The position numbers and the translations under genes are program-made. From an uncultured Poribacteria bacterium (lineage in GTDB: Bacteria > Poribacteria > WGA-4E > WGA-3G), in the NCBI GenBank assembly GCA_951813565.1, contig OX638351.1, forward strand, positions 4,288,001 through 4,352,000: a DNA stretch of 64,000 bases, given 5' to 3'. Every line of letters starts with the position of its first letter. Positions within the stretch are counted from its first letter, which is position 1. The notes beneath the pieces are model-generated. The model did not search any database. It saw only the letters and a program-made list of their open reading frames with translations, and was not told where the DNA came from. Below are positions 7,747 to 54,482 of this stretch, piece after piece.

Positions 7747-8652
7747 GGGCGCAAGGGGGCTACCACTCCCTGCCTACGGTGTTTCCACCTCTTGTAGGAG
7801 GGGTTTTAAACCCCGATAAACGCTTGGAGTTCGTAGTCGTGCAATTCATGGCACCTCTTACATTTCTTGTAGGAGCGCTTTGTAAGCGCGATGCATAGTA
7901 GCCAGCGCGCTCCGCGTGCTGGCCGTCGCGCCTTTTGTGGAAGCACTTTAGTAAGAAGCGCGCGATATATTGTTGCTGAAAACGGTTCACACATCAGTAT
8001 AAATTCGTTTTCAATAATACAGAGTGATAAAGTTTGTAGGTTGGGTTGGGTAGAGTTTGCGAAACCCATAAATCAACGCTATGAATGCCTTTATGGCATT
8101 CAGCCAAATCAACGCAGCATGCGCGTATGGCATGCTGCGGGCGTCAATTTAAGGATTTATTTCAGGTTTCACACATTTTAACCCAAACAACACCGGAACC
8201 CAATTGTAGGGGCGGGTCTCCGGTGAATGCCAAAAGGCATTCATACCCGGTGAATGACTAAAGACGAATGCGCTTGGTAGAATACGCTTTTGGTATTCTA
8301 CATGATTCGCCATGGTTCATACCGTTGATTTCTTGATTTGGTGCCCGCCAGTTGTTTGAATACATCAGCAATGGCGGGGCACAGAGACCCCACCAAATGC
8401 CAAAAAGCGCATTTGGCGTTGATTTGGCCCTACAAGGTGTGCCAGGATTTATCCCCTAAATTGACACCTATGGGGGTAGAGTTTGCGAAACCCAACCTAC
8501 TTATAACTAATGTAAGAGGCGCAATGAATTGCGCGACTACAAACGCTGATATTCTTAAAATCCGCGAAATCTGTGTAATCCGTATCATCTGTGATTCAGA
8601 CAACAAAATCCAACACAAAGAGGTTGACGGCACACGGAGTGTGCCTACTACT
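7747..8652. repeat. Mosaic of GTAG-type REP palindromes, a MITE-like element (about 8139-8469) and CAAATCAAC micro-insertions
   Basis: Several GTAG-hairpin units; inverted termini GGGCGTCAATTTA / TAAATTGACACC; CAAATCAAC units at 8070, 8105, 8221-8340 and 8392-8426. Confidence 0.85.
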
Positions 8653-8719
8653 TTTAATCGCACATCTAAATCGGTTATTTATAAACTACCGTATTAAAAC
8701 CAATTATTGAGGTATAAAA

Positions 8720-9736
8720 ATGTTTCAAAACCTATCGATTCAATCTATTGGGGTTGCACTGTTAATAGCAGCGCTTATGATTCCATTAGCTTTAGCGGAG
8801 AATGAAGTGGAAAAACCGAAAGAACTTAAAGTGGGCATGATAGCCCCAGATTTTACGTTGAAAGATGAAACCGGGACCGAACGTAGTCTCAGTGAATTCT
8901 TAGGAAAGAAAAGCGTTGTCCTCGCCTTTTATCCGAAAGACTTTACCGGTGGCTGAACAGCCGAACTCCAGTCGCTCCGGGATAAATTGAGCGACATAAA
9001 AGAAACCGAAACTGTCTTGTTCGGTGTCAGTGTAGACAACGTTGAGTCGCATAAAAAATTTAAAGAACAAGAAAAGTTCGGATTTTCATTGTTGGCGGAT
9101 ACTGAATTTGAGGTAAGCAAGCAGTACAGCGGGGTTATGGAAAGGTTTAACGCTTCAAAACGGACGACTTTCATTATTGATAAGGCAGGATATATCCGTG
9201 CAATTGATAAAAAAGTCAAAGTGCAGACGCATGGTGAAGATGTTGTAAAACTGCTTAAGAAAGCACTGCCAAAAATAGAAGTTGGGCAGCCTGCTCCCGA
9301 TTTTATCGCCAGGGATGGCGCAGGAAAAACACACCAACTCAGCAAGTTACAGGACAAAAAGAACGTGGTTTTAGCGTTTTATCCGCGTGATTTTGGGCGT
9401 GGCTGAACGGCTGAAGTTTGCTCGCTCCGTGATGAGTCGAGTAGTTTTGCTGAACAGGATGTCCAGGTCTTTGGGATTACTATCAATGATGCTGAGTCAC
9501 ATCAGAAATTTTCGAAAGAAAATGAACTGAATTTTCCACTGCTGATGGATACAGAAAAGAATCTTGCCTTACTCTTTGGTGCTGCTGCAGAAAAATCCGA
9601 CAAACGTTTCAAGCGCTTGACGGTAATCATTGACAAAGCAGGAAAAATCGTGAAAATTGACAAAGAGGTCAATCCAAGCACACACGGGTCAGATTTAGTG
9701 GATTTCTTCAAAACCGTTGATGCGTCAAAAGAATAA
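8720..9736 (+). CDS. Exported tandem two-domain peroxiredoxin (AhpC/BCP-PrxQ type) selenoprotein, 338 aa, Sec at codons 79 and 229
   Basis: ORFs 8720-8956, 8987-9406 and 9545-9736 share one frame and are separated only by TGA at 8954-8956 and 9404-9406. Read-through gives FYPKDFTGG-U-TAELQ and FYPRDFGRG-U-TAEVC, the peroxidatic Cys position. Confidence 0.93.
8971..8995 (+). promoter_or_regulatory. Candidate bacterial SECIS hairpin 1
   Basis: GTCGCTC-cgggataaatt-GAGCGAC, a perfect 7-bp stem starting 14 nt after the UGA. Confidence 0.7.
9419..9443 (+). promoter_or_regulatory. Candidate bacterial SECIS hairpin 2
   Basis: TGCTCGCTC-cgtgat-GAG(T)CGAGTA, a bulged stem; shares TCGCTCCGnGAT with hairpin 1 at the same distance from the UGA. 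Confidence 0.65.
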
Positions 9737-10351
9737 TTGATGACACGTAAGACTTTCTCGGCATTTCCTGCTTGGGTTGCTTTGGGAACTTCTGTAATTT
9801 TTAGTCCGTTTATTGTACCGATTGTAACGGCTATATTTGTTGTCCAAAAACATGCGACTACAAATCAAGAAGTGATGCTTTGGCTTGCAATTGTGGCAAC
9901 ATTTGTTACGGTGCTACCGATATTGGCAATAGTTTTGCTATTTCGGTTTTCGAAGGTGAGTAATTTACATCTCCGTGCCAAAGAAGAACGACTAATACCG
10001 CTCTGCTTCACGTTAGTCAGCATGATTATAGGAACCATAATCCTTTACAAGATTGGGGCAAGTTCCAAGATCATTTGGGCGTGCATAGCTTATATTGTAA
10101 ATAGCGTTGTGTTTTCTGCTATTACACCACTATGGAAAATTAGTTTTCATACCAGTGTTACAACCGGCTGTATAATGGTCTTAGTGTTCCTTGTAAATTC
10201 TAATTTAGTGTGGCTTTTTCTTCTTGTTCCACTTATAGCATGGGCAAGGGTTTACCGTGAACGTCACACACCTCTTCAAACGGTCATCGGCACGCTGTTA
10301 GCAATTGTTAACACGATGCTTGTTTTTTATTTTCTACCGATTTCTGGATAA
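9737..10351 (+). CDS. Integral membrane protein, PAP2/phosphoesterase-like
   Basis: Multiple transmembrane segments; WKISFH and WARVYRERHT motifs. Confidence 0.7.
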   Translation: MMTRKTFSAFPAWVALGTSVIFSPFIVPIVTAIFVVQKHATTNQEVMLWLAIVATFVTVLPILAIVLLFRFSKVSNLHLRAKEERLIPLCFTLVSMIIGTIILYKIGASSKIIWACIAYIVNSVVFSAITPLWKISFHTSVTTGCIMVLVFLVNSNLVWLFLLVPLIAWARVYRERHTPLQTVIGTLLAIVNTMLVFYFLPISG

Positions 10352-10401
10352 AGTTCGTTGGTCGGGTTAAGGTGAAGAAAGTCAAATATAGTTGTTTCAC
10401 A

Positions 10402-11217
10402 CTATGGAACATTCAATGACGTTTTAATTAAAGGTAGTAGATTATCCCAGTCACATTGTAAGCAAAAATAATTACTTTCACCGATACGTTTTACTTCGCC
10501 ATTACATTCAGGGCAACTTGTGAGACGCTCAGTTTCATCAATATCTGTTTCAGATAACGGTGGAAACATCAGCAGTTGTCCTATTGGCAGAGCAGGTTCT
10601 CGACTGGCGATATGTTGTTGCACAGCTTCAATTACCTCTTGTGCATTTAAATGGAGTGGTGGTGGTGCATTTTCTGTCAGATCAATAAAGCTGCTCCGGT
10701 AAAATCGAATGGTCTCAGCATCATTGACGCGACGCATGAACACCGTAAATTTACATGGGGCTACCAAAAAAGCAGAAGAATCTAATATGTGGTGCTTCGC
10801 GCTTAAAGAAAGTTCATAGCCACCATATTCAAAGATGGAATTGCCTTGGTCCATCCAAATAGTATCTGGAGTATTCTGAAACACCTCATGGAGTTCATAC
10901 GAACGAGTGACCGACAGAATTAAGACGTATCGCTGATACGGATACTGTGATAGAAGTTCAACTGGCAGAAAAGATTGAGGTTCAGAAATTTGTTGGAGAA
11001 ATGTTGTAAATGCTTTATATGCTGCTTCCTCAGCCCTTCGTAAAACCGAAAGATTCTGTCTCTGAAAGTTGAGCGTACGCCCCTCCGACTGTGAAATCGC
11101 TGCCTCACTGATGTAAAGTTCTGTTTGGACATCAACGTCTACAGTGCTATTTAGACTACTGGGAATATGGAGACGCTGCACCGATTCTTCAGTGGTTTTG
11201 AGGACAAAAGGTAACAT
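10402..11217 (-). CDS. Hypothetical protein with C-terminal zinc ribbon
   Basis: 271-aa ORF with CPEC...CLQC near the C-terminus. Confidence 0.7.
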   Translation of the reverse strand: MLPFVLKTTEESVQRLHIPSSLNSTVDVDVQTELYISEAAISQSEGRTLNFQRQNLSVLRRAEEAAYKAFTTFLQQISEPQSFLPVELLSQYPYQRYVLILSVTRSYELHEVFQNTPDTIWMDQGNSIFEYGGYELSLSAKHHILDSSAFLVAPCKFTVFMRRVNDAETIRFYRSSFIDLTENAPPPLHLNAQEVIEAVQQHIASREPALPIGQLLMFPPLSETDIDETERLTSCPECNGEVKRIGESNYFCLQCDWDNLLPLIKTSLNVP

Positions 11218-11440
11218 AGCAATCCGTTTTACACCGTAAACTTATAGATACAGCAATTGTAACACATCCCGTTTTTCTGTTCAACCCAAAATCCTTATCT
11301 ACATTTTATTTGTATCTTCTGCTGCTATGTGCTATACTATTTATAGGCGTTACGCCAACTATATATCTTCGGTTTTCGTATGTCCCTGATGCATACCAAG
11401 CTTTATTCCATTGAACTGAAATTAAGAAAGGACACAGATT

Positions 11441-12187
11441 ATGTCAGGACACTCTAAATGGTCAACAATTAAACATAAAAAGGCGGCAAACGATTCTAAA
11501 CGTGGCAAACTTTTTTCCCGGTTAATTAAGGAAATTACGGCTGCCGCACGTCTTGGTGGTGGAGATGTTGACATGAATCCCCGCCTTCGTACCGCAATTT
11601 CAACAGCAAAGTCAAGTAACCTTCCTAATGATAACATTGAAAAGGCGATTCTTCGTGGCACTGGCGAGCTTGAAGGAGAATCTTTAGAAGAAGTCGTCTA
11701 TGAAGGATACGGGCCCGGCGGTGTCGCGCTCATAATAGAGGTGATAACTGACAACCGTAATCGTACCATTGCCGCCGTTCGACATGCGCTGAGCAAGTTT
11801 GATGGTAGAATCGGTGAACGCGGATGTGTCGCATGGGGATTTGATAAATGCGGACTCATCGTTGTTGATGCAGATAGTATTGATGAAGAAGAGTTGTTTA
11901 TGGTCGCTGCAGATGCTGGTGCTGAAGATTTAACACCCTTGGAAGGGACTATTGAAATTATCACACCATTCGAACAGTTTGATAACGTCGTCACTGCTAT
12001 TCAATCCACTGACGCAACCATTCAATTAGCAGAAATCAGCATGATTCCTCAAAATACCGTTAAACTTGAAGGTAAAGAGGCAGAACGTATGCTACGACTC
12101 ATGGGGACGTTGGACGAACTGGACGACGTGCAGAAAGTTTACGCTAACTTTGACATTCCAGACGATATCCTTGAAGCAGCAGCGTAA
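11441..12187 (+). CDS. yebC: YebC/PmpR family protein
   Basis: MSGHSKWSTIKHKK, YEGYGPGG and DDVQKVYAN motifs. Confidence 0.97.
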   Translation: MSGHSKWSTIKHKKAANDSKRGKLFSRLIKEITAAARLGGGDVDMNPRLRTAISTAKSSNLPNDNIEKAILRGTGELEGESLEEVVYEGYGPGGVALIIEVITDNRNRTIAAVRHALSKFDGRIGERGCVAWGFDKCGLIVVDADSIDEEELFMVAADAGAEDLTPLEGTIEIITPFEQFDNVVTAIQSTDATIQLAEISMIPQNTVKLEGKEAERMLRLMGTLDELDDVQKVYANFDIPDDILEAAA

Positions 12188-12205
12188 TTATAGGATCCAT
12201 TGTTA

Positions 12206-12706: not shown

Positions 12707-12739
12707 ATTTCACTAAACGCTGAAAGGAAACACATCAGC

Positions 12740-13336: not shown

Positions 13337-13431
13337 TCTTTTTATTATCACAGATAATGTGAATTTTGCTAAAATGCAAAACACACTTTAAAACGAAACT
13401 GTTATGAACATCCTTATGTCAGGACAACAAA

Positions 13432-14472: not shown

Positions 14473-14531
14473 CCACTTTTATATTTCACAATTCACTCCA
14501 AGTGTGTCTTTATTTTTAATAAAATGATGAT

Positions 14532-15560
14532 ATGAAACTGACAGATTTTGATTACGATCTGCCTCCTGATCGGATAGCGCAAGTACCATTACAGCGTAGA
14601 GACGCATCACGACTCATGGTTATTGATCGAAACACACGGGAGTTTCATCATACACAATTTTCACAGATAGGAGAATTTTTACCAAACCGCTCACTGTTAG
14701 TTTTGAACGACACAAAGGTGATCCCCGCGAGGTTAATCGGAAACAAAAGAGAGACTGGTGGAAAAATTGAATTACTTCTTATTCAAGAAAAGGAACAGGA
14801 CACATGGGAAGTCCTCGCGAAACCTCGTAGAAGCCTGAGAGTGGGAACGAAGTTAGTATTCGGTGATGGTATTTTGAAGGGAAAAGTCTTAGATAAACCT
14901 GACACAGGAAATTGCATCGTCCATTTTACCTATAATGCAACATTTTCAGAAGTTATTGCTGAAATAGGGATGACACCTTTGCCGCCTTATATTCGCCGTT
15001 CACCGAACGAAGAAGATAAGATGCGCTATCAGTCGGTTTATGCTTCTACAGAAGGTGCAATTGCCGCGCCAACAGCAGGCTTGCACTTTACGCCAGAGTT
15101 GCTTGAAGAATTGAGAGGCAATGGTATACAAACGGTAATGCTAACGCTGCACGTGGGAATAGGGACATTTCAACCGGTTAAGGTAGAGAACGTCCAAACC
15201 CACAAGATGCATGCTGAATATATACGCCTTGCTGAGACAGAAGCAAAACAAATTCGCAAGGCACGCGAAGCGGGTACAAAAATTGTTGCTATCGGCACAA
15301 CGGTAGTAAGGGCACTCGAAACCGCTGGTGCGGACAGAACAATAAAACCTTTTAGTGGGTATAGTGAACTTTTTATTTATCCCGGTTATCAATTTAATAT
15401 CGTAGATGTATTGCTTACCAATTTTCATCTACCCAAATCAACATTACTAATGCTTGTAAGTGCCTTCGCTGACAGAATTTTAATACAGAAAGCTTATGAG
15501 GAAGCACTGTTACATGAATACCGATTTTTCAGTTACGGCGATGCAATGCTAATTCTATAA
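14532..15560 (+). CDS. queA: S-adenosylmethionine:tRNA ribosyltransferase-isomerase
   Basis: DFDYDLP, PLPPYI, AAPTAGLHFT, TNFHLPKSTL and YRFFSYGDAM motifs. Confidence 0.98.
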   Translation: MKLTDFDYDLPPDRIAQVPLQRRDASRLMVIDRNTREFHHTQFSQIGEFLPNRSLLVLNDTKVIPARLIGNKRETGGKIELLLIQEKEQDTWEVLAKPRRSLRVGTKLVFGDGILKGKVLDKPDTGNCIVHFTYNATFSEVIAEIGMTPLPPYIRRSPNEEDKMRYQSVYASTEGAIAAPTAGLHFTPELLEELRGNGIQTVMLTLHVGIGTFQPVKVENVQTHKMHAEYIRLAETEAKQIRKAREAGTKIVAIGTTVVRALETAGADRTIKPFSGYSELFIYPGYQFNIVDVLLTNFHLPKSTLLMLVSAFADRILIQKAYEEALLHEYRFFSYGDAMLIL

Positions 15561-15579
15561 AAACAGAAGGAGAAATATT

Positions 15580-17102: not shown

Positions 17103-17109
17103 GGTACTG

Positions 17110-18967: not shown

Positions 18968-18995
18968 AACAGCGTTCAAGTTGAGCCTCTAAGCA

Positions 18996-20584: not shown

Positions 20585-21361
20585 TACCAAATTAACGGGA
20601 TTTGTTTCATTTTTCTGGATAGACAGCGCGCTTACATGAGGATTAAAAATATATTTCGGTAATTTCTAACGATAGACATCTTGTTTTATCTTTTTCTTGT
20701 GTGAGGTTCATTATCTTGTTGTCTGAATCACGGAAGGCACGGAGTTCACGGAAGTCCTTTCTATTCATTTATGTTTCTTCTAATCAGAAATAGTAATGAA
20801 ACGGAAATGCTTCTGCGTCTTCCGCGTTCTCTGCGCCTTCCGTGATTCAGACAGAAAAGGGATCAGATTACCGAATTAATAACTTAATCTTCATCAAAGC
20901 GCGCCTACAAGTTGAAGCAAGTTAATTGAGGGGTGTGCATAAATAATTCCGATGTTATAGTAAAACCTATAATTACTGGGACACTTCTGTAGCGCAACCT
21001 TTTAGTTTGCGTCTCATAAGGCACAAACTAAAAGGTTGCGCTACAACTTCTATTGTCTATTATCTTTCCAAGACAAGTTTATCAAAGTGTCCCAATAATT
21101 TCAAAGTTCACTATAAATATGTGCTTAAAGGTAGTCCGCACACGCCGTGGGTTTCCGTCCACAAGTTCAAAGAGGCGCAGCATGCCACACGGGGAATGCC
21201 ATAAGGCATTCGGACCGTTGATTTGGCGCATGCTGCGTTGATTTGGCAATGAATTGCGCGACTACAAACGGCATTTCTATAAATCAAGCGGCGCCTGGCG
21301 TCTGTCCCTGTCTGTGTTGATGCGCCAAATATTTATGCACACTCCTCAGTTAATTTGGTAT
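20584..21361. mobile_element. Nested MITE/REP composite
   Basis: Outer 13-bp perfect inverted repeat ATACCAAATTAAC; inner inverted-repeat elements at 20636-20894, 20927-21348 (GTTAAT duplication) and 20955-21116; REPs and micro-insertions inside. Confidence 0.8.
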
Positions 21362-24797: not shown

Positions 24798-26099
24798 TTA
24801 CTCAGTGCGGAGTGCTTCTATCGGGGAAAGGGCGGACGCTTTTAGTGCAGGATAGAGTCCAAAAGAGATACCAATCAACGCAGAAAATGAGACGGAAATA
24901 ATAACCCACTGCATAGAGATGACTGAGGGCCAATCCGGCACCATCTTGACGATCTTCACAGCAAGAAGTGCCATACCTTCGCCTGCGAGATAACCTATCC
25001 CAACACCGATAGCACCACCTATAATGCACATCACAATTGACTCTATAAGAAACTGTAGCATAATATCTAAGCGTTTAGCGCCAAGTGCTTTCCGAAGACC
25101 GATTTCACGCGTGCGTTCACTAACTGCTACCAACATCATATTCATTATTCCAATACCACCGACAAGCAGCGAAAAACCAGCTATACTACCCAACGCAATT
25201 TTTATCACTTTACTAATTTTATCTAACTGCGCCATACCTTCACGCATATCTCTGAGACTGAAGAAATCATCCTGATTCTTATGGCGTGTTCTCATGACTG
25301 CTTTCACCTCTTCTATTGCTTTCGGAACATCGTCAACGGTGTTGGCGTGAACAGATAACATTACAATGTGATCGTTACCGGTAAAACGCTCTTGTGCCGT
25401 TGTGATGGGGATGAAAACCATATCGTCAAGGTTCCATCCAAATCGAAGACTTCTGCCACGGCCTTCCATTGTTCCGACAACGGTAAAACGTTCAGCGATC
25501 CGGACATGATCCCCTCTGCCATATCTATCAAATCTGCCTCCACCTCTACCGATTTTGATTTCCTCGTTTATAGGAGATCTGTTACCGAATAGGTTAAATG
25601 CAACCTCAGTGCCTAAAACGCAAACTTTCGCTTTGTTTTCAATATCCTCATCGGAAATAAAACGTCCTTCCTGAATTTTCCAGTCCATCGCTTCCGAAAA
25701 TGAGGAATTAACACCATTATAACCGCTGCGAGTTTCAGACCCATCATTAGTTTGAATCTGGACACCCCGCCATTCTGGAATTCTGGGGACAACGACTTTC
25801 ACCGATGGACATTCCGCCTCAATAGCTAATACGTCTTCGTACTTGAAATATTCGTTGCTACGGTTCGGCATCCAACGACTTCCAACTCGCTTGTAGCTGC
25901 TGCGATACATTGTGAATTGGTTGACACCACCCAGTTTTTGGGCATCTTGTAACACAATTTCTTTAGCACCATCACCGATTGAGATCATCGCAAGCACAGA
26001 GGCAACACCGATGATAATACCAAGCATTGTTAGCAACGATCGCAGTTTATTGCTACGAATTGCAGAAACCCCAACGGATAATCCCTCAAATATGCGCAT
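24798..26099 (-). CDS. MacB/FtsX-like ABC transporter permease
   Basis: RSLLTMLGIIIG, GIMNMMLVAVSERTREIGLRKALGA. Confidence 0.94.
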   Translation of the reverse strand: MRIFEGLSVGVSAIRSNKLRSLLTMLGIIIGVASVLAMISIGDGAKEIVLQDAQKLGGVNQFTMYRSSYKRVGSRWMPNRSNEYFKYEDVLAIEAECPSVKVVVPRIPEWRGVQIQTNDGSETRSGYNGVNSSFSEAMDWKIQEGRFISDEDIENKAKVCVLGTEVAFNLFGNRSPINEEIKIGRGGGRFDRYGRGDHVRIAERFTVVGTMEGRGRSLRFGWNLDDMVFIPITTAQERFTGNDHIVMLSVHANTVDDVPKAIEEVKAVMRTRHKNQDDFFSLRDMREGMAQLDKISKVIKIALGSIAGFSLLVGGIGIMNMMLVAVSERTREIGLRKALGAKRLDIMLQFLIESIVMCIIGGAIGVGIGYLAGEGMALLAVKIVKMVPDWPSVISMQWVIISVSFSALIGISFGLYPALKASALSPIEALRTE

Positions 26100-28078: not shown

Positions 28079-29380
28079 TTATTCAGTACGCAATGCCTCA
28101 ATAGGTGAAAGTGAAGACGCTTTTATTGCTGGATATAACCCAAAAGAGATACCGATTAACGCTGAGAACGATATTGAAATCAAAACCCATTCTGTTGAAA
28201 CAACCGAGGGCCATTCAGGCACAATTTTGGCGATTTTAACAGCGAGAAGTGCCATTCCCTGCCCAGCAAAGACGCCCAGACCAATTCCTATCAGTCCTCC
28301 CAAACCACACATCACAACTGCTTCCATTAGGAATTGAATAAGAATGTCAAATCGTTTTGCGCCCAGAGCCTTCCGCAGTCCTATTTCACGCGTCCGTTCG
28401 CTGACAGCAACCAGCATCATGTTCATAATACCGATACCACCGACAAGCAGCGAAAAACCAGCAATACTACCCAACGCTATCTTAATCACTCTGCTGATTT
28501 TCTCCAACTGCGCCATACCTTCACGCATATCAAAGATTCTGATGAAATCATCTTGGTTCCTGTGCCGCTTGCGGATGACTGCTTTTACTTCTTCTATTGC
28601 CTTCGGAACATCTTCAACAGTGTTTGCATAAACGACAATATCCTGTATCCGATCATCGCCAGTAAAACGTTCTTGCGTGGTTGAAAACGGCATAAAGACA
28701 AGACCGTCGTAACTCCAACCAAATCGGAGACTTCTGCCTCTTGGTGTCATTGTTCCTACAACCGTAAAACGTTCGGTTGATCGCTTGCGGTCCCTACGGC
28801 CGTATCGGTCATAACGTCCGTCACCTTTTGCGATTTTTATTTCCTGGCCGAGCGGAGATTTATCACCGAATAAGTCAGTTGCAATCTCATCTCCAAGTAC
28901 ACAGACAGTCGCAGCATTTTCCACATCTTCATCAGAAATAAATCGTCCCTCTTGAATTTTCCAGTCCATTGAAGTATGATAGGTAGCATCTACACCATTA
29001 TATCCAGCACGGGTTTGCGTGCCTCCTGCAGCTTCAATTAACGCACCTCTCCATTCTGGAATTCTTGGGGTCACTGCCTTCACGGACGGACATTCAGCCT
29101 CAATTGCCAACACATCGTCGTATTTCATGTACTCGTTACTACGGATTCTAACCCATTGCGATCCTACCCGTTTATACCATGTGCGATAGATAGTAAACTG
29201 GTTTGCCCCTCCCAGTTTTTGAGCATCACGCAAAACAATCTCCTTCGCACCATCACCGATTGAAATCATTGCAAGCACAGACGCAACGCCGATGATAATC
29301 CCAAGCATTGTTAGCAATGATCGCATCTTATTAGAGCGAATGGCGGTGATCCCGACAAATAGTGCCTCTATCAATTGCAT
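28079..29380 (-). CDS. MacB/FtsX-like ABC transporter permease
   Basis: Close paralog of 24798-26099 with the same 433-aa length. Confidence 0.94.
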   Translation of the reverse strand: MQLIEALFVGITAIRSNKMRSLLTMLGIIIGVASVLAMISIGDGAKEIVLRDAQKLGGANQFTIYRTWYKRVGSQWVRIRSNEYMKYDDVLAIEAECPSVKAVTPRIPEWRGALIEAAGGTQTRAGYNGVDATYHTSMDWKIQEGRFISDEDVENAATVCVLGDEIATDLFGDKSPLGQEIKIAKGDGRYDRYGRRDRKRSTERFTVVGTMTPRGRSLRFGWSYDGLVFMPFSTTQERFTGDDRIQDIVVYANTVEDVPKAIEEVKAVIRKRHRNQDDFIRIFDMREGMAQLEKISRVIKIALGSIAGFSLLVGGIGIMNMMLVAVSERTREIGLRKALGAKRFDILIQFLMEAVVMCGLGGLIGIGLGVFAGQGMALLAVKIAKIVPEWPSVVSTEWVLISISFSALIGISFGLYPAIKASSLSPIEALRTE

Positions 29381-29576: not shown

Positions 29577-29780
29577 TTATATTGAAATTCATAATTATTT
29601 GGACATTCTGTTCTTATGCGGATTTCAAACACACGGTAAATGTCCGAGGCGACAAGTCATGGTGAATACCATACGCGTATTCGCCCAAGTGCGCTTGGCG
29701 TTGATTTGGCAATGAATTGCGCGACTACAAACGCCGCTAACCTTAAGAAAATGTCCAGTTATTTTTCGATTTTACTATAA
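29577..29780. mobile_element. TATAGT-type MITE-like element containing an interrupted REP
   Basis: Termini TTATATTGAAATTCATAATTATTTGGACATT / AATGTCCAGTTATTTTTCGATTTTACTATAA; 58-bp insert at 29651-29708. Confidence 0.7.
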
Positions 29781-29791: not shown

Positions 29792-31093
29792 TTATTCTTT
29801 TCGTAGGGCTTCAATAGGGGAAAGCATAGATGCTTTGATTGCTGGATACAATCCAAAAGATATTCCGATTGCAGCGGAAAATAATACTGAAATCAAAACC
29901 CACTGTGCAGAAACAACTGCAGGCCATTCAGGCACAATTTTAGCGATCTTAACTGCGATAACTGACATGCTTTCACCAACGAAAATACCTAAACCGATAC
30001 CTATAATTCCGCCGACTGCACACATTGTAATTGACTCAATGAGAAATTGAAACATTATGTCAAGTGGTTTTGCGCCGAGTGCTTTCCGCAAACCGATCTC
30101 ACGCGTGCGCTCTGTTACTGCAACTAACATCATGTTCATAATGCCAATACCGCCAACAAGCAATGAAAAACCAGCGATACTACCCAATGCGATTTTAATC
30201 ATCTTGCTTATTTTTTCCAGCTGCCGTATGCCTTTCCGCATCTCATAGATTTTGACGAAATTGTCTTCGCCTTTATGCCGGCTGCGGATCACTTCTTTTA
30301 CTTCTCGAACTGCATTAGGAACATCCTCAACAGTGTTTGCGTAGACCACGATTTCTTGAATCTTATCATCACCAGTGAAACGTTCTTGAGTGGTTGTTAT
30401 CGGAAAAAAGACCATGCTATCAAAACTCCAACCGAATCGCAGACTTCTACCTCTTGGCATCATTGTGCCTACAACCGTGAACCTTTCGGTTATACGTCTA
30501 CTACGTCTCTTTCCCCGATGATCATAATATCTTACACGCCGGGCCATTTTTATCTCCTGCCCAAGAGGAGATTTGTTGCCGAATAGATCGGTTGCCACCT
30601 CATCGCCAAGCACGCAAATTTTGGCTGCGTTTTTTACGTCTTCATCTGTAATAAATCGTCCATCTTGCAGTTTCCAATCCATTGCAGTTTTAAAAGATGA
30701 ATCTACACCGTTATATCCAGCACGGGTTTCAGCACCACCAGGGGCTTGGATTAATATTCCTTTCCAATCTCGTATCCTTGGGGTGACATCACTCACCGTG
30801 GGACATTCCGCTTTAATGGCAAGCACATCGCCGTAGTTTAGATATTCCTTTGTGCGGATTGGGATGTTGTGTTTTCCAAGTTTTTTCTTTGACCTGCGGT
30901 ATAAAGTGAACTGGTTCGCACCACCGAGTTTTTGTGCATCTTGCAGGACAATCTCTTTTGCGCCATCTCCGATAGCTATCATTGCAAGCACTGCCGCTAT
31001 ACCGATTATTATGCCAAGCATCGTTAGTAACGAACGCATCTTGTTGGCACGTATCGCGGCGATTCCAATGGATAGCCCTTCAATTAAACTCAT
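29792..31093 (-). CDS. MacB/FtsX-like ABC transporter permease
   Basis: Third 433-aa paralog. Confidence 0.94.
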   Translation of the reverse strand: MSLIEGLSIGIAAIRANKMRSLLTMLGIIIGIAAVLAMIAIGDGAKEIVLQDAQKLGGANQFTLYRRSKKKLGKHNIPIRTKEYLNYGDVLAIKAECPTVSDVTPRIRDWKGILIQAPGGAETRAGYNGVDSSFKTAMDWKLQDGRFITDEDVKNAAKICVLGDEVATDLFGNKSPLGQEIKMARRVRYYDHRGKRRSRRITERFTVVGTMMPRGRSLRFGWSFDSMVFFPITTTQERFTGDDKIQEIVVYANTVEDVPNAVREVKEVIRSRHKGEDNFVKIYEMRKGIRQLEKISKMIKIALGSIAGFSLLVGGIGIMNMMLVAVTERTREIGLRKALGAKPLDIMFQFLIESITMCAVGGIIGIGLGIFVGESMSVIAVKIAKIVPEWPAVVSAQWVLISVLFSAAIGISFGLYPAIKASMLSPIEALRKE

Positions 31094-31228: not shown

Positions 31229-32341
31229 TTAGGCAGCCAAGCCTGCCCGTTTGATATTGATAGCAGCGTTGGTGTCTCTGTCGTGGTGTGACCCACATTC
31301 GGGACATGTCCACTGCCTATCAGAAAGAGAGAGTTCTTTGTTATGGTATCCACAATCACTACAAGGTTTTGTTGTTGCTATCCATTGCGAGATTCGCACA
31401 AGTTTTTTGCCGTGCTTCGCACACTTCTGTTCCAATATCTGAAGAAACTGGTAGAAAGAATGGTCAGAAACTTTACGTCCCCATAATCGTTTCATACCGT
31501 CAAGGTTCAGCGTTTCAAAAATGAGTGTGTCAAACTCTACACAAAGTTTTGAGGCAAGTTTCCATTGCCAATCTTCTCTTTGTCGTGCCACCTTTCTGTG
31601 TTGTCTTGCCAAAGCACGACACACACGATACCAATTGCTTGAACCTTTAACCTTACGACTCAGTGTTTTGTTTAGAGATTGCAGCGTCTTGAGTGATTGC
31701 TTGAAAAATTCTGGTGATTCTATCTTGTTGCCTTCGTCGCTTGTGAGGAATGTTTTGTTTCCGTAATCAAATCCTGCGCTCTTACCCGTCTTAGACTTAG
31801 GTTCGGAATCGTCAACATTCTCGCACGAAAAGCATATCCAATAGTCACCGCACCTATCGCGTTTGATGGTGATTGTCTTGATAGTTCCTTTGAAATCACG
31901 GTGTTTGTGGTAGGAAAACCATGTGTCTATACAATTGATTTTGATACGCTTATCTTCCAATGTATAGCCAGCTTGAGTGAATGTCATAGAATTGTATTTG
32001 TGGCGGGGTTTGATTTTCGGTCTACCGACTTTACGCGTTGTTTTGCCCGCTTTTCGGTCTTCGATATTCTCAAAGAAAGCGTCTTGAGATTTACCATAAC
32101 GCAGCACAACGTCTTGCACAACTTGGCTCGGCAAGGCTGCCCAATGCGGTTTTGTCCGCTTTTTGAGTTTCGCAACATGTGCGTTTATATGATACGCGGA
32201 TAGGTTCTTTCCAAATATACGGTAATACCTACGAGCCAATAGCATGATATGCACGTGGATTTCCCACATATCGTCAAGCATGTTGCCGAGTTTGATTGTG
32301 TTAGATTGATTTTGAAGTTTGAACTTGTCCGCTTTTCTCAT
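31229..32341 (-). CDS. tnpB: RNA-guided endonuclease TnpB
   Basis: RuvC-I GFDYG, RuvC-II ETL, zinc finger CSDC/CPEC, RuvC-III DRDTNAAINI. Confidence 0.96.
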   Translation of the reverse strand: MRKADKFKLQNQSNTIKLGNMLDDMWEIHVHIMLLARRYYRIFGKNLSAYHINAHVAKLKKRTKPHWAALPSQVVQDVVLRYGKSQDAFFENIEDRKAGKTTRKVGRPKIKPRHKYNSMTFTQAGYTLEDKRIKINCIDTWFSYHKHRDFKGTIKTITIKRDRCGDYWICFSCENVDDSEPKSKTGKSAGFDYGNKTFLTSDEGNKIESPEFFKQSLKTLQSLNKTLSRKVKGSSNWYRVCRALARQHRKVARQREDWQWKLASKLCVEFDTLIFETLNLDGMKRLWGRKVSDHSFYQFLQILEQKCAKHGKKLVRISQWIATTKPCSDCGYHNKELSLSDRQWTCPECGSHHDRDTNAAINIKRAGLAA

Positions 32342-32756
32342 TGTCCGCTTTGACCTTCAATATAGTCTTTTTCACTTGAAGTGTTACACCACCACAGGAA
32401 CTCACAAACTTGCTCCGTGTCCAAAGAGAGGGCAAACGACTTTTCAAACTTGGGTATTCTTCACGTAAAACTTTAGCCGTATAGCCTTTGATTTTTCCAA
32501 CGATTTTATCAATAGAATGCATTGGTGGGATTTCTATGAGCAAATGGACATGTTCAGGTTGTGTTTCAACCTCACGGATTTGATACTCATACGCGTCTTG
32601 TTTTTCTTCTATGAGTTGTTTCAGTCTACCTTGTATTTGTGTCTCTAAAACCTTACGCCTATACTTCGTACACCAGATAACGTGATATTGGCAACTATAG
32701 ACTGTTTTGTTCGTAGTGCGATAATTACGCTTTTTATTTGAGATTTTGAGTGGCAT
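32301..32756 (-). pseudogene. tnpA: IS200-type Y1 (HUH) transposase TnpA with a 1-nt deletion before the catalytic Tyr
   Basis: YHVIWCTKYRR, HVHLL and LWTRS motifs are present. DYIEGQ lies in the -1 frame (GTGAAAAAGAC here versus GTGATAAAAGAC in copies 2 and 3). Confidence 0.85.
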
Positions 32757-34310: not shown

Positions 34311-34494
34311 TTATAGTAGATTTTCAAATAATGACACACTTTCACTCGGCGCGTTGACAAAGCACCTATTGCTTTTACTATAAAGTCGCGACCAGGAGGT
34401 CGCTCCTACAGGAAGAAAGAGGCGCAATAAATTGCGCGACTACAAACGCAGTAATTGAAAAGAAATGTCTACTTATTCTTATATTTTACTATAA
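34311..34494. mobile_element. TATAGT-type MITE-like element with two REPs
   Basis: TTATAGTAGA... / ...TTTTACTATAA termini; REPs at 34385-34409 and 34417-34443. Confidence 0.6.
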
Positions 34495-34803
34495 CCTAAG
34501 TTGCTACGGACAAGATTTCAAGTTAGCAAACACTGCTTTTTACTGAAAAAACAAGGCTTTTTCGCTGATTCTTATGTTTTTTGTTCTAAAATCCAAATCA
34601 ACACCAAATGCGCGTTTGGCATTTGGCGGGGTTAGAAACCCCTCCTACAAGAGCATTTGCGAAATAGGTGGCATAATCTGTTAGATTGTGCTTGTGAAGG
34701 CGCAAACTGACAGTTTGCGCTACGAAATCTTGCAAAAATGCATAATTCTCTATAAAACATGTTGTCTGCATGTCTAAAATCTTGTCCGTAGCAACTTGGG
34801 TTA
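34492..34803. mobile_element. About 310-bp MITE with long terminal inverted repeats
   Basis: TAACCTAAGTTGCTACGGACAAGATTT / AAATCTTGTCCGTAGCAACTTGGGTTA (1 mismatch in 27), with TA at both ends. Confidence 0.85.
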
Positions 34804-37115: not shown

Positions 37116-37459
37116 CTGTAATTAAATGGAATATCAACAGAAAAAAGAATGTCCGAGGCGACAAGTCATGGCGAATACCACACAGTGAGTGCCTAAAGAC
37201 GAATGCGCCAAATCAAGAAATCAACGGTATGAATCATGGCGAATCATGTAGAATACCAAAAGCGTATTCTACCAAGCGCATTCGTCTTTAGTCATTCACC
37301 GGGTCCGAATGCCCTTTGGCATTCCCGTATGGCATTCGCCATGATTCATACCGTTGATTTGGCGTATTCGCCCAAGTGCGCTTGGCGTTGATTTGGCAAT
37401 GAATTGCGCGACTACCAACGCGTTTTTGTTAATGAGAAGTTATTATTTAGAAATGGTAT
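37116..37459. repeat. REP-bearing repeat carrying a 236-bp nested insertion
   Basis: Flanks match 51716-51822, which lacks the 37160-37395 insert. Confidence 0.88.
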
Positions 37460-46930: not shown

Positions 46931-46965
46931 ATGGTTTTCTTCGGAGTAGAAACCTGAAATATATC

Positions 46966-49032: not shown

Positions 49033-49257
49033 GAGGCGCAGCATGCCACACGGGGAATGCCATAAGGCATTCAGACCCGGTGAATGACTAAAGACGAATG
49101 CGCTTGGTAGAATACGCTTTTGGTATTCTACATGATTCGCCATGATTCATACCGTTGATTTCTTGATTTGGCGCATGCTGCGTTGATTTGGCAATGAATT
49201 GCGCGACTACGAACAGATAATTTGAAAATGAGAAGTTATTTTTCAGAAATGGTATAA
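49023..49257. repeat. REP with a 153-bp nested micro-insertion and a MITE-like right end
   Basis: AAGAGGC[49038-49190]GCAATGAATTGCGCGACTAC, followed by AATGAGAAGTTATT...GAAATGGTAT. Confidence 0.85.
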
Positions 49258-49270
49258 CTTAAAAAGAAAT

Positions 49271-49301
49271 AGGCAGATACCCAAATAAAGGATACCTGCC
49301 T
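49271..49301. terminator. Hairpin between convergent genes
   Basis: AGGCAG(A)TA...TA(C)CTGCCT imperfect stem. Confidence 0.45.
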
Positions 49302-49329
49302 GTGTGAATTTAGACTATAGGTCAACGAC

Positions 49330-50295
49330 TCATTTCTTTAATGTTCCCCACCTGACTTTTTTTCCCTGTGGGGTGACAGAAAGTACATCGTCGTCGATCC
49401 AATGCGGTGCAAGGTCATCCCGCGGATGGCTTGTGAGATTCGTTATCTCCCCTGTAACAAGGTGATACCGGTATATCTCAATCTGCCGATCCGCTGCGGC
49501 ATGTTCCTCAGCAGCGATAAGCACCTGTTTCCCGTTGTCCATCCAACACGCTGAATGAACTAACCACTTTTTAGTCGGAATTTTTAAAAAGCGCCGATTG
49601 GGAGAACCGTGTTTCTGAATCACAACGTTGTTTTGTAGCAACTGAAACGCATGTTCATTGCCGTAGAGCGCCTCAACATACATAACAGATTTGCTATCTG
49701 GAGACCAGGCAGGCGAAAAACGATACCAATTATCATGCGGTACAAGAGGGTGCTGTCCTGATCCGTTCGCATTCATCACATAGATCGTTGTTAAATTCGC
49801 TGCCGGATGCGCCTGGCGATAGGCAATATATTTACCATTCGGCGACCACGACGGTCTTGAGGTAAGCTCTGGGTTGTTAGTCAGTTTCCGAACAGCACGG
49901 GTAAAGATATCTATCACATAGATATTCCTATCTTTACCATAAGCAATGCGGGACCCATCGGGCGACCAAGAACATAAACTCACATTAAAATCCGTGATCT
50001 GCTGTTCTTGGCTGCCATCACTATTCATAATGAATAGCGCGGACTTTTGCTGCCTTCTATCTTCCGATATTTCTCTTAGAAACGCAATGCGTTTACCGTT
50101 TGGAGACCAGACAGGACCAGAATCGTAGTGCGGCAGTCGTGTGAATGTTAATCTTTGGACATTGCTACCATCATCGTCCATCACATAGAGGGTCTGTCCA
50201 CCGTGACGCTGTGATTCGAAAACGATCTTGGCAGTGGCGAAACTCGGCACCATCCATAGCAGCAAGAAGTAAATAAAGAAACGTTTGGACAGCAT
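49330..50295 (-). CDS. Secreted TolB-like (PD40) beta-propeller protein
   Basis: Signal peptide; KIVFES, YVMDDDGS and P.WSP.G repeats. Confidence 0.9.
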   Translation of the reverse strand: MLSKRFFIYFLLLWMVPSFATAKIVFESQRHGGQTLYVMDDDGSNVQRLTFTRLPHYDSGPVWSPNGKRIAFLREISEDRRQQKSALFIMNSDGSQEQQITDFNVSLCSWSPDGSRIAYGKDRNIYVIDIFTRAVRKLTNNPELTSRPSWSPNGKYIAYRQAHPAANLTTIYVMNANGSGQHPLVPHDNWYRFSPAWSPDSKSVMYVEALYGNEHAFQLLQNNVVIQKHGSPNRRFLKIPTKKWLVHSACWMDNGKQVLIAAEEHAAADRQIEIYRYHLVTGEITNLTSHPRDDLAPHWIDDDVLSVTPQGKKVRWGTLKK

Positions 50296-50310
50296 AAGTA
50301 TTCCCCTTCA

Positions 50311-51136
50311 TTAATCGGCTACATCAACGGTGTAGTATTCCCAATAGCCCGTTCCATCATTTCGCCAAATCTCAGCTCTGATTCTGTAGGCGCCCCTGAT
50401 ACCTTCAGGAAACGTGTAACTCATCGTAGTCGTATCACCGTCACCGCTATCTACTTGTACATTCGTGCCGGGCTTGGTATCCCCGGGTGCTTGTACATAC
50501 CAAAGGACTTCATCAAAGGGCATGTCTGTAATTAGCAGCGACTCCCAGCTATCGCCCGCATTGGCAGAGAAATCATCGTCGAAGTCAACACCGTTTGTCG
50601 TAGGACCGATTCCAACAACACCGAGGGGCTATGTGTAAAATCAACTTCAAAGTCCGCTTGCCATGTATCTTGTCTATTAGCCAAGCGCGGATGGTCACAC
50701 CTCAATGTAACAGTACCTTTCATTGTGTGTTCCTCATTTCTTGGTGCACCTATTCTGTCAACATGTAGGGAGAGGTGTCCAAAAATCATGTTAGAAGAAC
50801 CCTCTTCACCATTTTCCTCTATATTTCCAATAAAGGAATCCTTCTCATCCGGCCGTATCCAAGGATTGAAAGACGAAACTCACCACTATAGCCGTGGCGC
50901 TTGTCACCACTATTACCGAACATGACCATACCATCGAGATATGCCACACCAGGCTCTTGATTATCATAATAAAGGCTTGATACTTGAGCACTTCCCCAGA
51001 CATTAGGATTGTGATTCCCATTCCCTGTTACTATATCTAACGCTGCGAAAAGCGGAAGCGTGAGTAAACAAGCATAGGTGATAAACAGAAACATCACAAA
51101 ACGTGTGATGTGTTTTGATGTATCTAATCTTTTCAT
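50311..51136 (-). pseudogene. Secreted protein gene interrupted by two frameshifts
   Basis: Three overlapping open frames join into one plausible protein, with shifts near 50855 and 50630. Confidence 0.7.
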
Positions 51137-51192
51137 TTTATATCTCCTGTAAAAGTAAGATATATCATGTTGTTATGATATCCATTGTTTAT

Positions 51193-51298
51193 CGGGGCCC
51201 TATCCTTGTTCGGTAGACCTTCCACCGTCTTAATAAAGGTTCGGGCACCCTGGCGATCAAACCATAGTATCTCATCAGTAAAGTTGAGAAGGGCGCCC
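51193..51298 (-). ncRNA. Candidate structured 5' leader RNA
   Basis: GC-rich nested stems between a promoter and the 51136 start codon. Confidence 0.45.
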
Positions 51299-51331
51299 AT
51301 CTTGAAATACTATGTTTTGATCGTTAATAGT

Positions 51332-51361
51332 ATTATACAACAAAATTGCAAAGAGAGTCAA
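51332..51361 (-). promoter_or_regulatory. Sigma70-like promoter
   Basis: TTGACT-18 nt-TATAAT on the minus strand. Confidence 0.6.
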
Positions 51362-51685
51362 AAATAAATTTGGAAAATGGAAATTGAGTAATTAGGAAAA
51401 AATATAGAACGCTCATATAAAACCCACATTCCGCAGTTGTTTAATCAGAATTTAATATTTATAGGACAAACCCGTGTCACGAAAGGATCCGTACCGGATA
51501 ATAGAGATTTGATGTTGTGAATTAAGATTCTATTTTCCACTTGTCTTCTTCTCTGGTTCACTTGAAATTGCTTGCTCGATGTAGGTGCCGCGTAGGTTTG
51601 AAAAATAAATATCGAAAATCGGAAATTAGAAGTGCGGAATGTAGGTTCTAATTCAAAAGGGAAATTCATTTTTAGAATTGGTATA

Positions 51686-51822
51686 ATACCAATTCTAAAA
51701 TACAATGTCTCATTCTGTAATTTAATGGAATATCAACCGAAGAAAGAATGCTAAGAGGCGCAATGAATTGCGCGACTACGAACGCGTTTTTGTTAATGAG
51801 AAGTTATTATTTAGAAATGGTA
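51686..51822. mobile_element. ATACCA...TGGTAT MITE-like element with an uninterrupted REP
   Basis: ATACCAATTCTAAAATACAATGTCTCATT / AATGAGAAGTTATTATTTAGAAATGGTAT termini; intact AAGAGGCGCAATGAATTGCGCGACTAC inside. Confidence 0.75.
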
Positions 51823-51940
51823 TAATATGTTGACGAAGCACTACTATAATTTCTGACCATTGAAATTTGTATAATCCAATTAACCTCCTTTTTCGTCTTT
51901 ATGTTAATGTGTCATTTTCTGCGCAAAGGAGGCAACGCTT

Positions 51941-54172
51941 TTGGACCATCATCTATTTTCTTTCCCGCCGTTTCCGAAAATCAGAATTTATTTATTTGTT
52001 CTTACATTTTTATCTATCGTTGTTTCCAATGTTAACGCAGAAACACCAAATTTCCAGATTACAGCATACCGTACCTACGAAAGTATTGAGATTGACGGTG
52101 ATCTAACCGAAGGCGATTGGCAAAAAGCGGAACCGATAAATCAATTTGTTCAAATTGAACCTTATGAAGGTGAAAATAGTTCCGAACCGATGGAGGTACG
52201 TATTCTCTACGATGATGACAATATTTATTTTGGTTTCATCTGTTTCGACTCAGATATGTCAAAACTTGTTGCTAATGAAATGCGTAGAGATGCACGCGAT
52301 ATACACGAAAATGACAATGTTTTTCTACTATTGGATACATACAATGACAAGCGGAGCGGATTCTTTTTTCGTGCAAACGCATTGGGGGCAATACAGGATA
52401 GAGCAATAACGAATAACGGAGATACACTCAACAACGATTGGGATGCCGTTGTGGCATGTAAATCAAAAATTAACGACACATCATGGACAACGGAACTCAG
52501 CATTCCATTTAGTCAGCTCCGTTTCAAAAAGAGCGATCCAATGAGTTGGGGTATGAACGTTGGTCGTGAGCTTATACGGAATCAAGAAGAGACGATATGG
52601 ACACCCGTGCCAGCTTCTTATGGTGGCTTGGCAAAATACCGAACAACAAACCTTGGCACGCTTGGCGGATTAAAGGGAATTACTCCCTCCCGGAATTTAG
52701 AAATTCTGCCGTACTTTCTACCCGGTGTTACGCAAGTCAACGAAGAAGATGCAGCCCTTGAGACCACACGGGAACTTAAACTCGGCTTTGATGCAAAATA
52801 TAGCGTCACTTCTAACCTAATTACAGACATTACCTATAATACCGACTTCGCGCAAGTTGAGGCAGATCAGGAACAGGTTAACCTCACCCGGTTTAGTCTC
52901 TTCTTTCCGGAAAAAAGACCCTTCTTTTTGGAAGGGGCGGGACTTTTCGATTTTGGCGTCCCAAGACAAAGTTTTCGGAGACCCCCGCCGATGCTTCTTT
53001 TTTACAGTCGGCGCATCGGATTAGCTGAGGGAAACGCTATTCCGATTATTTTCGGTGGAAAAGCCAGCGGCAAAATCGGTTCTTATGGTGTTGGGGTTCT
53101 CAATGTTCTTACAGACGAATTCTATGACGAACCCGCAGAAGATGATCCAGTTGACATTCCGCGTACCAATTACTCTGTCATCCGAATTACAAAGGATGCT
53201 GCAGCAGGATCGCGCTTCGGCATGATTGTTGTAAATAAAGACGAATTCGGCAATTATAACCGCGCAGGTGGATTCGACTTTGAATTTCGCCCTAACGATA
53301 GACTTGATGTACGCGGCATGTGGGCACGTACCTTTTCACCTGATATGTCTGGGAAAAATAATGCTTGGTACTTCGGCACGCGATGGCGAAATGACATCTT
53401 TCGAATCGGAGGATCCTACACCGATATTGATGAAGATTTTGATCCTGCGGTTGGATACGTCCGACAAACAGGAATGCGCCAAATGCGAACTGAAATGCGG
53501 TGGACGCCCAGACCACAAAAATACGGAATTCGTGAAATTTGGTCGGGTCCAGAAGTAAATTACATTCTCAACCAAGAAAATGAATTGGAACGGTGGAACT
53601 TTTCCTATACCCATTGGACATCATTCGCCACAGGTGACTCTGTGATGTTTTTTGCGAGAGGGATGTTTGAACGACTGGACGAAGATTTTGAAATTCGCGA
53701 GGATGTGCTTATTCCGATTGGGGATTACCAATACAGCATAGTCGGAGGGCGATTTTCAACCAGTGATAGCCGTGTTATCAGTACGACAACCGGTTTTGAA
53801 TTGGGAAACTTTTATAATGGTCAAATTCGTAAATTTTTTGTTGACGGCTCTCTGAAACCAAGTGGACGAATCAGTCTACACTTAGACTACGAATTTAATC
53901 GTGTCAACTTACCAACAGGTGATTTTGATGCTAACCTTTTCTCAGGCAGGTTCTATTACTCGTTTTCAACAACCTTGTTTGCAAAAATCTTTGCACAATG
54001 GAATACGGAGACGAACCTTGTGTCTACAAATTTCCTGATCAATTACATCTATCGTCCTGGGAGCGATTTCTATTTTGTTTTCAATCAAACCTACGATACA
54101 GACAAGACAACAAAAGCAGCACTTCGGAATTCTACTGTAGTTGCAAAAATGACGTTTTGGTGGAATCCGTAA
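51941..54172 (+). CDS. CBM9-like plus DUF5916 outer-membrane protein
   Basis: IDGDLTEGDW, LDTYND, NTDFAQVEAD..VNLTRFSLFFPEKRPFFLEG and LFYSRRIG motifs; exact start uncertain. Confidence 0.85.
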   Translation: MDHHLFSFPPFPKIRIYLFVLTFLSIVVSNVNAETPNFQITAYRTYESIEIDGDLTEGDWQKAEPINQFVQIEPYEGENSSEPMEVRILYDDDNIYFGFICFDSDMSKLVANEMRRDARDIHENDNVFLLLDTYNDKRSGFFFRANALGAIQDRAITNNGDTLNNDWDAVVACKSKINDTSWTTELSIPFSQLRFKKSDPMSWGMNVGRELIRNQEETIWTPVPASYGGLAKYRTTNLGTLGGLKGITPSRNLEILPYFLPGVTQVNEEDAALETTRELKLGFDAKYSVTSNLITDITYNTDFAQVEADQEQVNLTRFSLFFPEKRPFFLEGAGLFDFGVPRQSFRRPPPMLLFYSRRIGLAEGNAIPIIFGGKASGKIGSYGVGVLNVLTDEFYDEPAEDDPVDIPRTNYSVIRITKDAAAGSRFGMIVVNKDEFGNYNRAGGFDFEFRPNDRLDVRGMWARTFSPDMSGKNNAWYFGTRWRNDIFRIGGSYTDIDEDFDPAVGYVRQTGMRQMRTEMRWTPRPQKYGIREIWSGPEVNYILNQENELERWNFSYTHWTSFATGDSVMFFARGMFERLDEDFEIREDVLIPIGDYQYSIVGGRFSTSDSRVISTTTGFELGNFYNGQIRKFFVDGSLKPSGRISLHLDYEFNRVNLPTGDFDANLFSGRFYYSFSTTLFAKIFAQWNTETNLVSTNFLINYIYRPGSDFYFVFNQTYDTDKTTKAALRNSTVVAKMTFWWNP

Positions 54173-54339
54173 TCAAACGTTCCTGCAAAGAAATAGATAA
54201 ATTCTTGAAAAAACATGCCTACAACTCAAAAAAGTTGACAAATACTTTAAAATACGCTATAATTTACTATATAAACGACTTGTGCCAGTTAACATTTTGT
54301 TTTGTTGGTTTTCACATATATTTGCATTTGTGCTATATA

Positions 54340-54482
54340 CATATCGTTCCTACCAAATCAACGCCAAATGCGCGTGTAGCATTTGTCGGGACTAAAGAGT
54401 GCTCGTCCAATCATTTTCTATAAACATATCGTCCCTACCAAATCAACGTCAAATGCGCTTATGGCATTTGTCGGGACTGAAG
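54340..54482 (+). repeat. Two tandem CATATCGTCCCTAC^GGGACT palindromes, each split by a 34-bp micro-insertion
   Basis: Inserts at 54354-54387 and 54439-54472. Confidence 0.85.

Follow-up and report, generated by a model that had tools for sequence, protein, structure and literature searches.

Tagged repetitive extragenic palindromes (REPs) are 20- to 40-nt palindromes with an unpaired GTAG or CGTC tag (PMC3733652, PMC3116915), and some REP families are reported inside other palindromes, while CGTC REPs are reported to have no dedicated transposase (PMC3733652). Among the small dispersed repeats (SDRs) of heterocyst-forming cyanobacteria, SDR5 is described as inserted precisely between nucleotides 3 and 4 of HIP1, GCG^ATCGC (PMC4390886), and SDRs are reported only in Nostocaceae (PMC5861425). 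Mitochondrial palindromic GC clusters and double-hairpin elements are ~40 nt long and proliferate, merge and shuffle (PMC4478555), and the classification of IS200/IS605 insertion sequences includes non-coding derivatives (PMC6006769). Here we describe a 34- to 35-nt repeat unit from a 64-kb window (64,000 nt, the whole stretch of DNA that was analyzed) inside the chromosome of an uncultured Candidatus Poribacteria bacterium, which is represented by a single 5.43-Mb contig with 43% G+C. Each unit consists of an unpaired 9-nt tag, CAAATCAAC, followed by a 25- to 26-nt hairpin, and it is among the smallest mobile-looking DNA elements seen in bacteria. Units are inserted precisely at [A/G/T]C^G, without target duplication, in a fixed orientation and mostly in or beside hairpins. 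We consider it probable (roughly 0.6) that they are non-autonomous, REP-like micro-transposons of a 'tagged hairpin' type, a family restricted to one genus of Candidatus Poribacteria.

Like tagged REPs, bacterial interspersed mosaic elements (BIMEs) and the REPIN-RAYT system (RAYT, REP-associated tyrosine transposase), the Poribacteria unit is a short, intergenic palindrome with an unpaired tag at one end and a high copy number. It differs from tagged REPs in the tag itself, which is the 9-nt CAAATCAAC or a form ending in GAATCAAC instead of GTAG or CGTC, and in that single units enter the loops of other copies of the unit, again at a defined C^G. Unlike in REPIN-RAYT, no RAYT is flanked by the unit, and unlike REPINs the units do not form inverted doublets: 159 neighbor pairs within 300 nt comprised 132 direct pairs (59 of them abutting) and 27 inverted ones, with no preferred spacing.

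With SDRs the unit shares its nature as a very small non-coding hairpin repeat, its precise insertion into palindromes and the lack of a known enzyme. Compared to SDRs as described, it is 34–35 nt long with a 9-nt tag, resides in a host outside Nostocaceae and targets [A/G/T]C^G rather than HIP1. SDR4–6 were reportedly found by Elhai and colleagues in 2008 to be 21–27 nt and to be inserted into one another as well. IS200/IS605 elements insert without target duplication and in one orientation 3' of a short motif, recognize hairpins and have the same cleavage-site base at the element and target ends. The Poribacteria unit resembles them in its duplication-free, oriented insertion 3' of a short motif but contains one hairpin, whereas IS200/IS605 elements have two subterminal hairpins and extend over hundreds of bases; moreover, its ends are unrelated to those of the resident IS605 copies, and no replication-strand bias was seen against local GC skew or gene-strand majority, on a background of irregular genome-wide skew. 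Mitochondrial GC clusters are likewise palindromic, mobile-looking and without a known enzyme, but they are organellar, carry putative target-site duplications and have no conserved unpaired tag. Finally, the unit departs from miniature inverted-repeat transposable elements in its asymmetric ends (tag versus hairpin end) and in having no duplication beyond a single ambiguous C.

The kind of element is already known from tagged REPs and cyanobacterial SDRs, and the Poribacteria unit is a new form of it. The original prediction, made from the sequence of the window alone, did not recognize it as a described element; no Rfam family matches the unit and no match was found in plasmid or phage collections, but the kind itself has been described. 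In titles and abstract openings, the literature on Poribacteria and palindromic repeats was concerned with CRISPR and general genomics and gave no account of the element. To our knowledge, the mode of movement of REP-like and other very small repeats has yet to be settled, with CGTC-type REPs and cyanobacterial SDRs both lacking a known enzyme.

Exact copies of CAAATCAAC occurred 13 times in the window, compared to 1.22 on average, and never more than 5, in 100 dinucleotide-preserving shuffles. Eleven of these lie in loci listed by the original prediction, and each listed locus, on reading the sequence, holds the unit described for it. The other two matches (6381-6389, minus strand, and 15434-15442, plus strand) are in long open reading frames (ORFs), have no hairpin and were not parsed as units. 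The units of the window are as follows.

8069-8104, plus strand: 36-nt unit with variant tag TAAATCAAC and hairpin GCTATGAATGCC/GGCATTCAGC, the first of a two-unit head-to-tail array.
8105-8138, plus strand: canonical 34-nt unit with tag CAAATCAAC, 9-bp stem GCAGCATGC/GCATGCTGC and loop GCGTATG, followed by host GGGCGTCAATTTAAGG; DNA fold -10.5 kcal/mol, z-score -2.9.
8222-8340, minus strand: 119-nt composite within a GTAGGG-type REP loop, at GGGCAC^GGAGACC on the minus strand; it has doubled tag CAAATCAAGAAATCAAC and both nested and tandem hairpins.
8392-8426, minus strand: 35-nt unit with stem GCCAAATGC at GTAGGGC^GGGGTCTC.
21177-21245, minus strand: 69-nt nest whose 34-nt unit (stem GCAGCATGC) is at host CATTGC^GCCTC; DNA fold -17.7 kcal/mol, z-score -4.2.
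21191-21225, within the preceding minus-strand nest: inner 35-nt bulged-stem unit, in the loop at GCGC^GTGTGG.
29651-29708, minus strand: 58-nt variant at host CATTGC^GCCTCGGAC, made of a tag and a two-hairpin body of GCCAAGCGC type.
34594-34627, plus strand: 34-nt unit at AAAATC^GGGGTTAGAAACCCC, within a larger repeat of ~180 nt.
37160-37395, minus strand: 236-nt multi-level nest, with an outer GCCAAGCGC-type unit at CATTGC^GCCTCGGAC and inner units in both orientations.
49038-49190, minus strand: 153-nt nest, a 34-nt unit at CATTGC^GCCTC with a 119-nt doubled-tag composite in its loop.
54354-54387, plus strand: 34-nt unit at CCTAC^GGGAC, whose loop GCGC^GT (54373/54374) is filled by a 71-nt composite in a near-identical strain.
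54439-54472, plus strand: 34-nt unit at CCCTAC^GGGAC, unchanged in the near-identical strain.

Two predicted boundaries had to be moved: the unit placed at 8070 is present but starts one base earlier, with the variant tag, and the composite placed at 8221-8340 is present but begins at 8222, which yields the host junction listed above. Folded as DNA, units of the window form an unpaired 9-nt tag and a hairpin of 7–9 bp, with z-scores of -1.9 to -3.0, and in the 69-nt nest the fold places one hairpin inside another. The composite type at 8222-8340 recurs among the 120 doubled-tag genome copies listed, and the GCCAAGCGC-type body follows a tag 26 times genome-wide.

Across the genome, we found 649 exact copies of CAAATCAAC, compared to about 57 expected by base composition, of which 562 are preceded by C and 550 followed by G. 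We parsed units by removing simple ones and rescanning the remainder, with a small bonus for ends in C and then G, and recovered 441, including 401 with a single tag and 40 with a doubled tag; the 248 tag copies left over represent chance matches and units broken up by complex composites. The hairpin starts with G and ends with C, and its body falls into two classes: symmetric stems (GCAGCATGC, GCCAAATGC, GCTGAATGC and others) in units of 34–35 nt, and a bulged stem (GGTATG or GGTCCG ... GGCATTCCCC) in units of 35 nt. A second class of tag, ending in GAATCAAC and most often reading GTGAATCAAC (about 140 copies), stands ahead of roughly 140 further hairpins, so that the conserved tag core is AATCAAC. 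In many cases this second tag flanks a hairpin whose other side carries the first tag, for example around genome position 502470, resulting in two-headed units that read CAAATCAAC-hairpin-GTTGATTCAC. As its reverse complement, the tag is similar to the loop of the GGGGTTGAAAACCCC REP.

Hairpin structure is kept via compensatory changes. Among 52 distinct 25-nt bodies, pair 3 was CG in 25, TA in 14 and AT in 10, and pair 4 was AT in 26 and GC in 25; further double changes were seen at pair 5 (AT 42, CG 10) and pair 8 (GC 39, AT 11), while the apical ATGC/GCAT was near-invariant. Although the genome is 82% coding, 417 of the 441 units lie outside crude ORFs, and most of the remaining 24 are at the margins of ORFs or in ORFs that are short and doubtful. 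Unit orientation relative to flanking genes was inconsistent.

The 441 units correspond to 382 host sites, of which 347 hold a single unit and 35 hold arrays of 2–9 units. Host sites had C at position -1 in 371 cases and G at +1 in 363, with C at -2 in only 5. To control for the bonus that the parser gives to C and G ends, we recounted junctions with ends fixed by base pairing alone: C preceded 348 of 355 units and 345 of them ended in C, followed by G in 287 cases and by the next tag in 61. At loci of other Poribacteria species, the same three junction counts were 93, 95 and 89 of 97. Because the unit begins after a C and itself ends in C, its boundary is ambiguous by one base, and there is no longer duplication. 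The original prediction put forward a C^G rule without obvious duplication, stems that differ yet stay paired, and nesting (69 = 34 + 35; 153 = 34 + 119); all of these hold both in the window and genome-wide.

For 178 of the 382 sites, the exact empty junction (a 20-mer of 10 + 10 nt of flank) was found elsewhere in the unmodified genome, compared to 0, 14 and 0 for one-base-shifted control junctions. No host context (0/382) recurred as its reverse complement, even though C^G is self-complementary, and the orientation of the unit relative to its host repeat is fixed. Hosts were prone to form hairpins: 77% of sites folded at -3 kcal/mol or lower within 30 nt, compared to 27% of 3000 intergenic [AGT]CG control sites (P = 4e-77, which is overstated since sites are not independent events). 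Contexts comprised 176 distinct 20-mers in 64 families and 117 family-by-stem-type combinations, and identical unit sequences occurred in up to 13 different contexts. These data bear out the picture of a very small, asymmetric, non-coding element that enters several unrelated hairpin repeat families, and itself, with precision. Inserts between matched half-sites peaked at 34–35 nt (310 cases), 43–44, 68–69, 92, 102–104, 112 and 153 nt.

Target choice depends on unit class. Units were inserted into other REP families, into unit loops and at the C^G that a unit re-creates at its 3' end, which results in nests and head-to-tail arrays. Bulged units were located in GTAGGG-type REP loops (n = 66), in loops of other units (n = 53) and elsewhere (n = 52). 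Of the 211 symmetric units, none was in a REP or unit loop, 83 were at the 3' end of another unit and 128 were in other hosts.

We favor a non-autonomous element acted on in trans because insertion is clean, duplication-free, oriented and associated with hairpins, and because stems covary, one junction recurs in unrelated hosts, targets are class-specific, units nest in themselves and turnover is rapid. Under the proposed mechanism, a trans-acting enzyme would recognize the tag and hairpin on single-stranded DNA, cut 3' of C at both unit ends and paste the unit 3' of C at a hairpin-associated target, using what would be the simplest chemistry, that of the HUH Y1 enzymes (RAYT/TnpA-REP and IS200/IS605 TnpA). 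After insertion, copies also multiply passively along with the host repeats, through tandem duplication and probably through gene conversion among paralogues. Clean, duplication-free, orientation-specific insertion beside hairpins is the behavior of HUH enzymes such as those of IS608 and Escherichia coli TnpA-REP, by analogy with which an HUH-type single-strand mechanism is plausible.

The distribution of the tag is narrow. We counted 519 copies of CCAAATCAACG in the source genome and 13–428 per genome in the other 37 genomes sampled from the genus, compared to 1–24 in 57 sister-genus genomes and at most 17 in the rest of the phylum; a reversed control pattern, with both strands pooled, reached at most 8 per genome. 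The tag is amplified in one genus only; outside it, within the phylum, counts stay close to background. Scanning species genomes for the pattern yielded Candidatus Poribacteria almost exclusively, and the 3 matches in other taxa lacked the hairpin. Five matches in viral contigs were all hairpin-less and were set aside as chance. In three syntenic congeners (about 86% identity), units occupy other intergenic intervals than in the window; a single interval is common to both, and the unit type there differs. A filled/empty comparison at the species level was abandoned because the intergenic repeat content of these three congeners is wholly different, leaving single units unalignable.

The original prediction called for a search for filled and empty alleles among strains, and one case was found: a metagenome contig, 99.6% identical to the window across about 970 nt (4 mismatches), contains both the 54354 and the 54439 unit. 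The loop of the first holds an additional 71-nt composite, with a doubled tag and two hairpins, precisely at GCGC^GT (54373/54374). This is a filled/empty difference at one orthologous site between near-identical strains and counts in favor of the micro-transposon interpretation. The insert is accompanied by 4 substitutions in the next 17 nt, compared to 4 in the ~970 nt of flank, and paralogous units elsewhere in the source genome carry an identical 71-nt composite in this loop, so gene conversion from a paralogue is as likely an origin as fresh insertion or precise excision. Many copies are not independent events and have multiplied passively with their host repeats: the 34594 unit rides in its ~180-nt repeat and counts as passive copying, arrays with periods of 35 and 69 nt resemble tandem duplication, and in one congener nearly all units listed share a single host context. 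Part of this passive spread probably occurred by gene conversion between paralogous repeats. Candidate joints such as 29650>29709 in four public short-read runs were rejected as alleles: with 34 nt on the shorter side, they most likely derive from empty paralogues. Contigs of these runs break at repeats.

Taken further, these observations would make the unit not self-mobile at all but part of BIME-like mosaics, built by homologous recombination or gene conversion, slippage and co-amplification with host REPs after a few ancient insertions or fusions. The association between host family and unit type and the failure to find an enzyme in the survey below (Y1_Tnp loci and half-site inserts) also fit this explanation. 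We nonetheless judge it unlikely, although it fares best among the alternatives, as the same precise junction appears in 64 unrelated context families, with 117 family-by-type combinations, and a single shared base is too little for homology-driven exchange into unrelated hosts. Recurrence of identical units across contexts, the strictly fixed orientation and nesting several levels deep also argue against it and for a micro-transposon.

A search for the enzyme that would move such a transposon identified Pfam Y1_Tnp matches at 10 places in the source genome, including five IS605-type tnpA genes, one TnpA-like gene (Y...Q..HH motif), three RAYT-like genes (one broken) and one fragment. One of the tnpA genes lies in the window.

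32301-32756, minus strand: IS605-type tnpA (Y1_Tnp, 124 bits), one of five genome copies.
31229-32341, minus strand: putative tnpB, a 370-aa ORF co-oriented with tnpA, assigned from its position and size.

Several distinct RAYT- or TnpA-like genes, at about 5070794-5071273, 242008-242496, 3549656-3550090 and 3097971-3098471, are each flanked by a GTAG-type REP family of their own, and one precedes a long tandem array whose repeats, about 60 nt each, contain REPs. These GTAG-type REP families are the main hosts of the micro-element.

No Y1 gene was found linked to the unit, which weighs against an HUH step. The left end shared by the five IS605 copies is unrelated to the unit, and ordinary GTAG-type REPs, not the unit, flank four RAYT-like genes here and five RAYT loci in relatives. 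Four of 24 genomes of the genus have no Y1_Tnp match yet contain 33–104 tag copies; these include a one-contig and a four-contig assembly, and the one-contig genome has nests and arrays. The original prediction proposed looking for a transposase or recombinase gene bounded by the same end; in the source genome, we found no tag-bounded gene and no recurring long version of the element: inserts of at least 900 nt between half-sites were all singletons, and none of 11 genes with units on both sides recurs. Unit orientation was also unbiased with respect to local GC skew or gene-strand majority, with the caveats that genome-wide skew is irregular and that the host repeat sets orientation. Cumulative GC skew had a clear minimum near 0.5 Mb, no clean maximum and a plateau from about 3.5 to 5.1 Mb, a shape that suggests weak skew or large rearrangements.

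In the one-contig congener without Y1 genes, we inspected a unit-dense 120-kb region (4355001-4475000; 106 tag cores) and found no evident mobilizer among 73 of 77 ORFs compared to Pfam, the other 4 being locus-crossing ORFs that were omitted. Densely filled with genes for WD40-repeat proteins and AbiEii-like ATPases and with type ISP and MjaI restriction-modification genes, and encoding one phage-type integrase, the region has the look of a variable accessory island in which units accumulate.

These results leave room for bolder accounts of the mover. One is that the units constitute a transposon class of their own, with a mover that is neither a RAYT nor an IS200-type Y1 enzyme and with stem architecture setting the target (only bulged units entering hairpin loops, symmetric ones never); the mover would be of a non-Y1 type because some genomes with nests have no Y1 protein. 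We regard this as a tentative and rather unlikely proposal; if true, it would make the unit the smallest self-addressing mobile DNA known in bacteria. A related and more doubtful explanation is a new transposition mechanism, driven not by an HUH Y1 enzyme but by a nuclease/ligase or recombinase that has gone unrecognized, or by host repair acting on extruded hairpins. The missing unit-linked Y1 gene, the Y1-less genomes, the lack of a visible IS200/IS605-like strand bias and the single hairpin in place of two subterminal ones would all agree with it, but no candidate gene was found, including in the unit-dense region of the Y1-less congener, where nothing is linked to units, and insertion of this type fits HUH enzymes. 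Finally, a selected functional motif (protein-binding site, terminator or small RNA) rather than selfish DNA would be in keeping with the intergenic location and the covarying hairpin, but is highly improbable in view of unit positions that are not conserved between syntenic congeners, the 40-fold range of copy number within the genus, inconsistent orientation relative to flanking genes, the absence of an Rfam match and the nesting of units in one another.

The family offers an unusually clean system for studying REP-like mobility, with a defined 9-nt tag, a junction resolved to one base and two classes of stem that differ in target preference. Recent copies number in the hundreds, and copy number differs 40-fold among sequenced congeners, some with closed genomes. 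These properties open the enzyme question to phylogenetic profiling and simple oligonucleotide assays. The family also accounts for fast intergenic turnover in these sponge symbionts and for breaks in short-read assemblies.

The window contains other repeated features. The ~180-nt repeat that carries the unit at 34594 spans 34490-34673 and has at least five other genome copies that are 98–100% identical. It is part of a 480-nt intergenic block (34319-34799) that at least three congeners lack entirely at the orthologous locus. The minus strand also has a row of three paralogous ORFs of 433 aa each (24798-26099, 28079-29380 and 29792-31093), and the same arrangement aligns in congeners at 72–87% identity.

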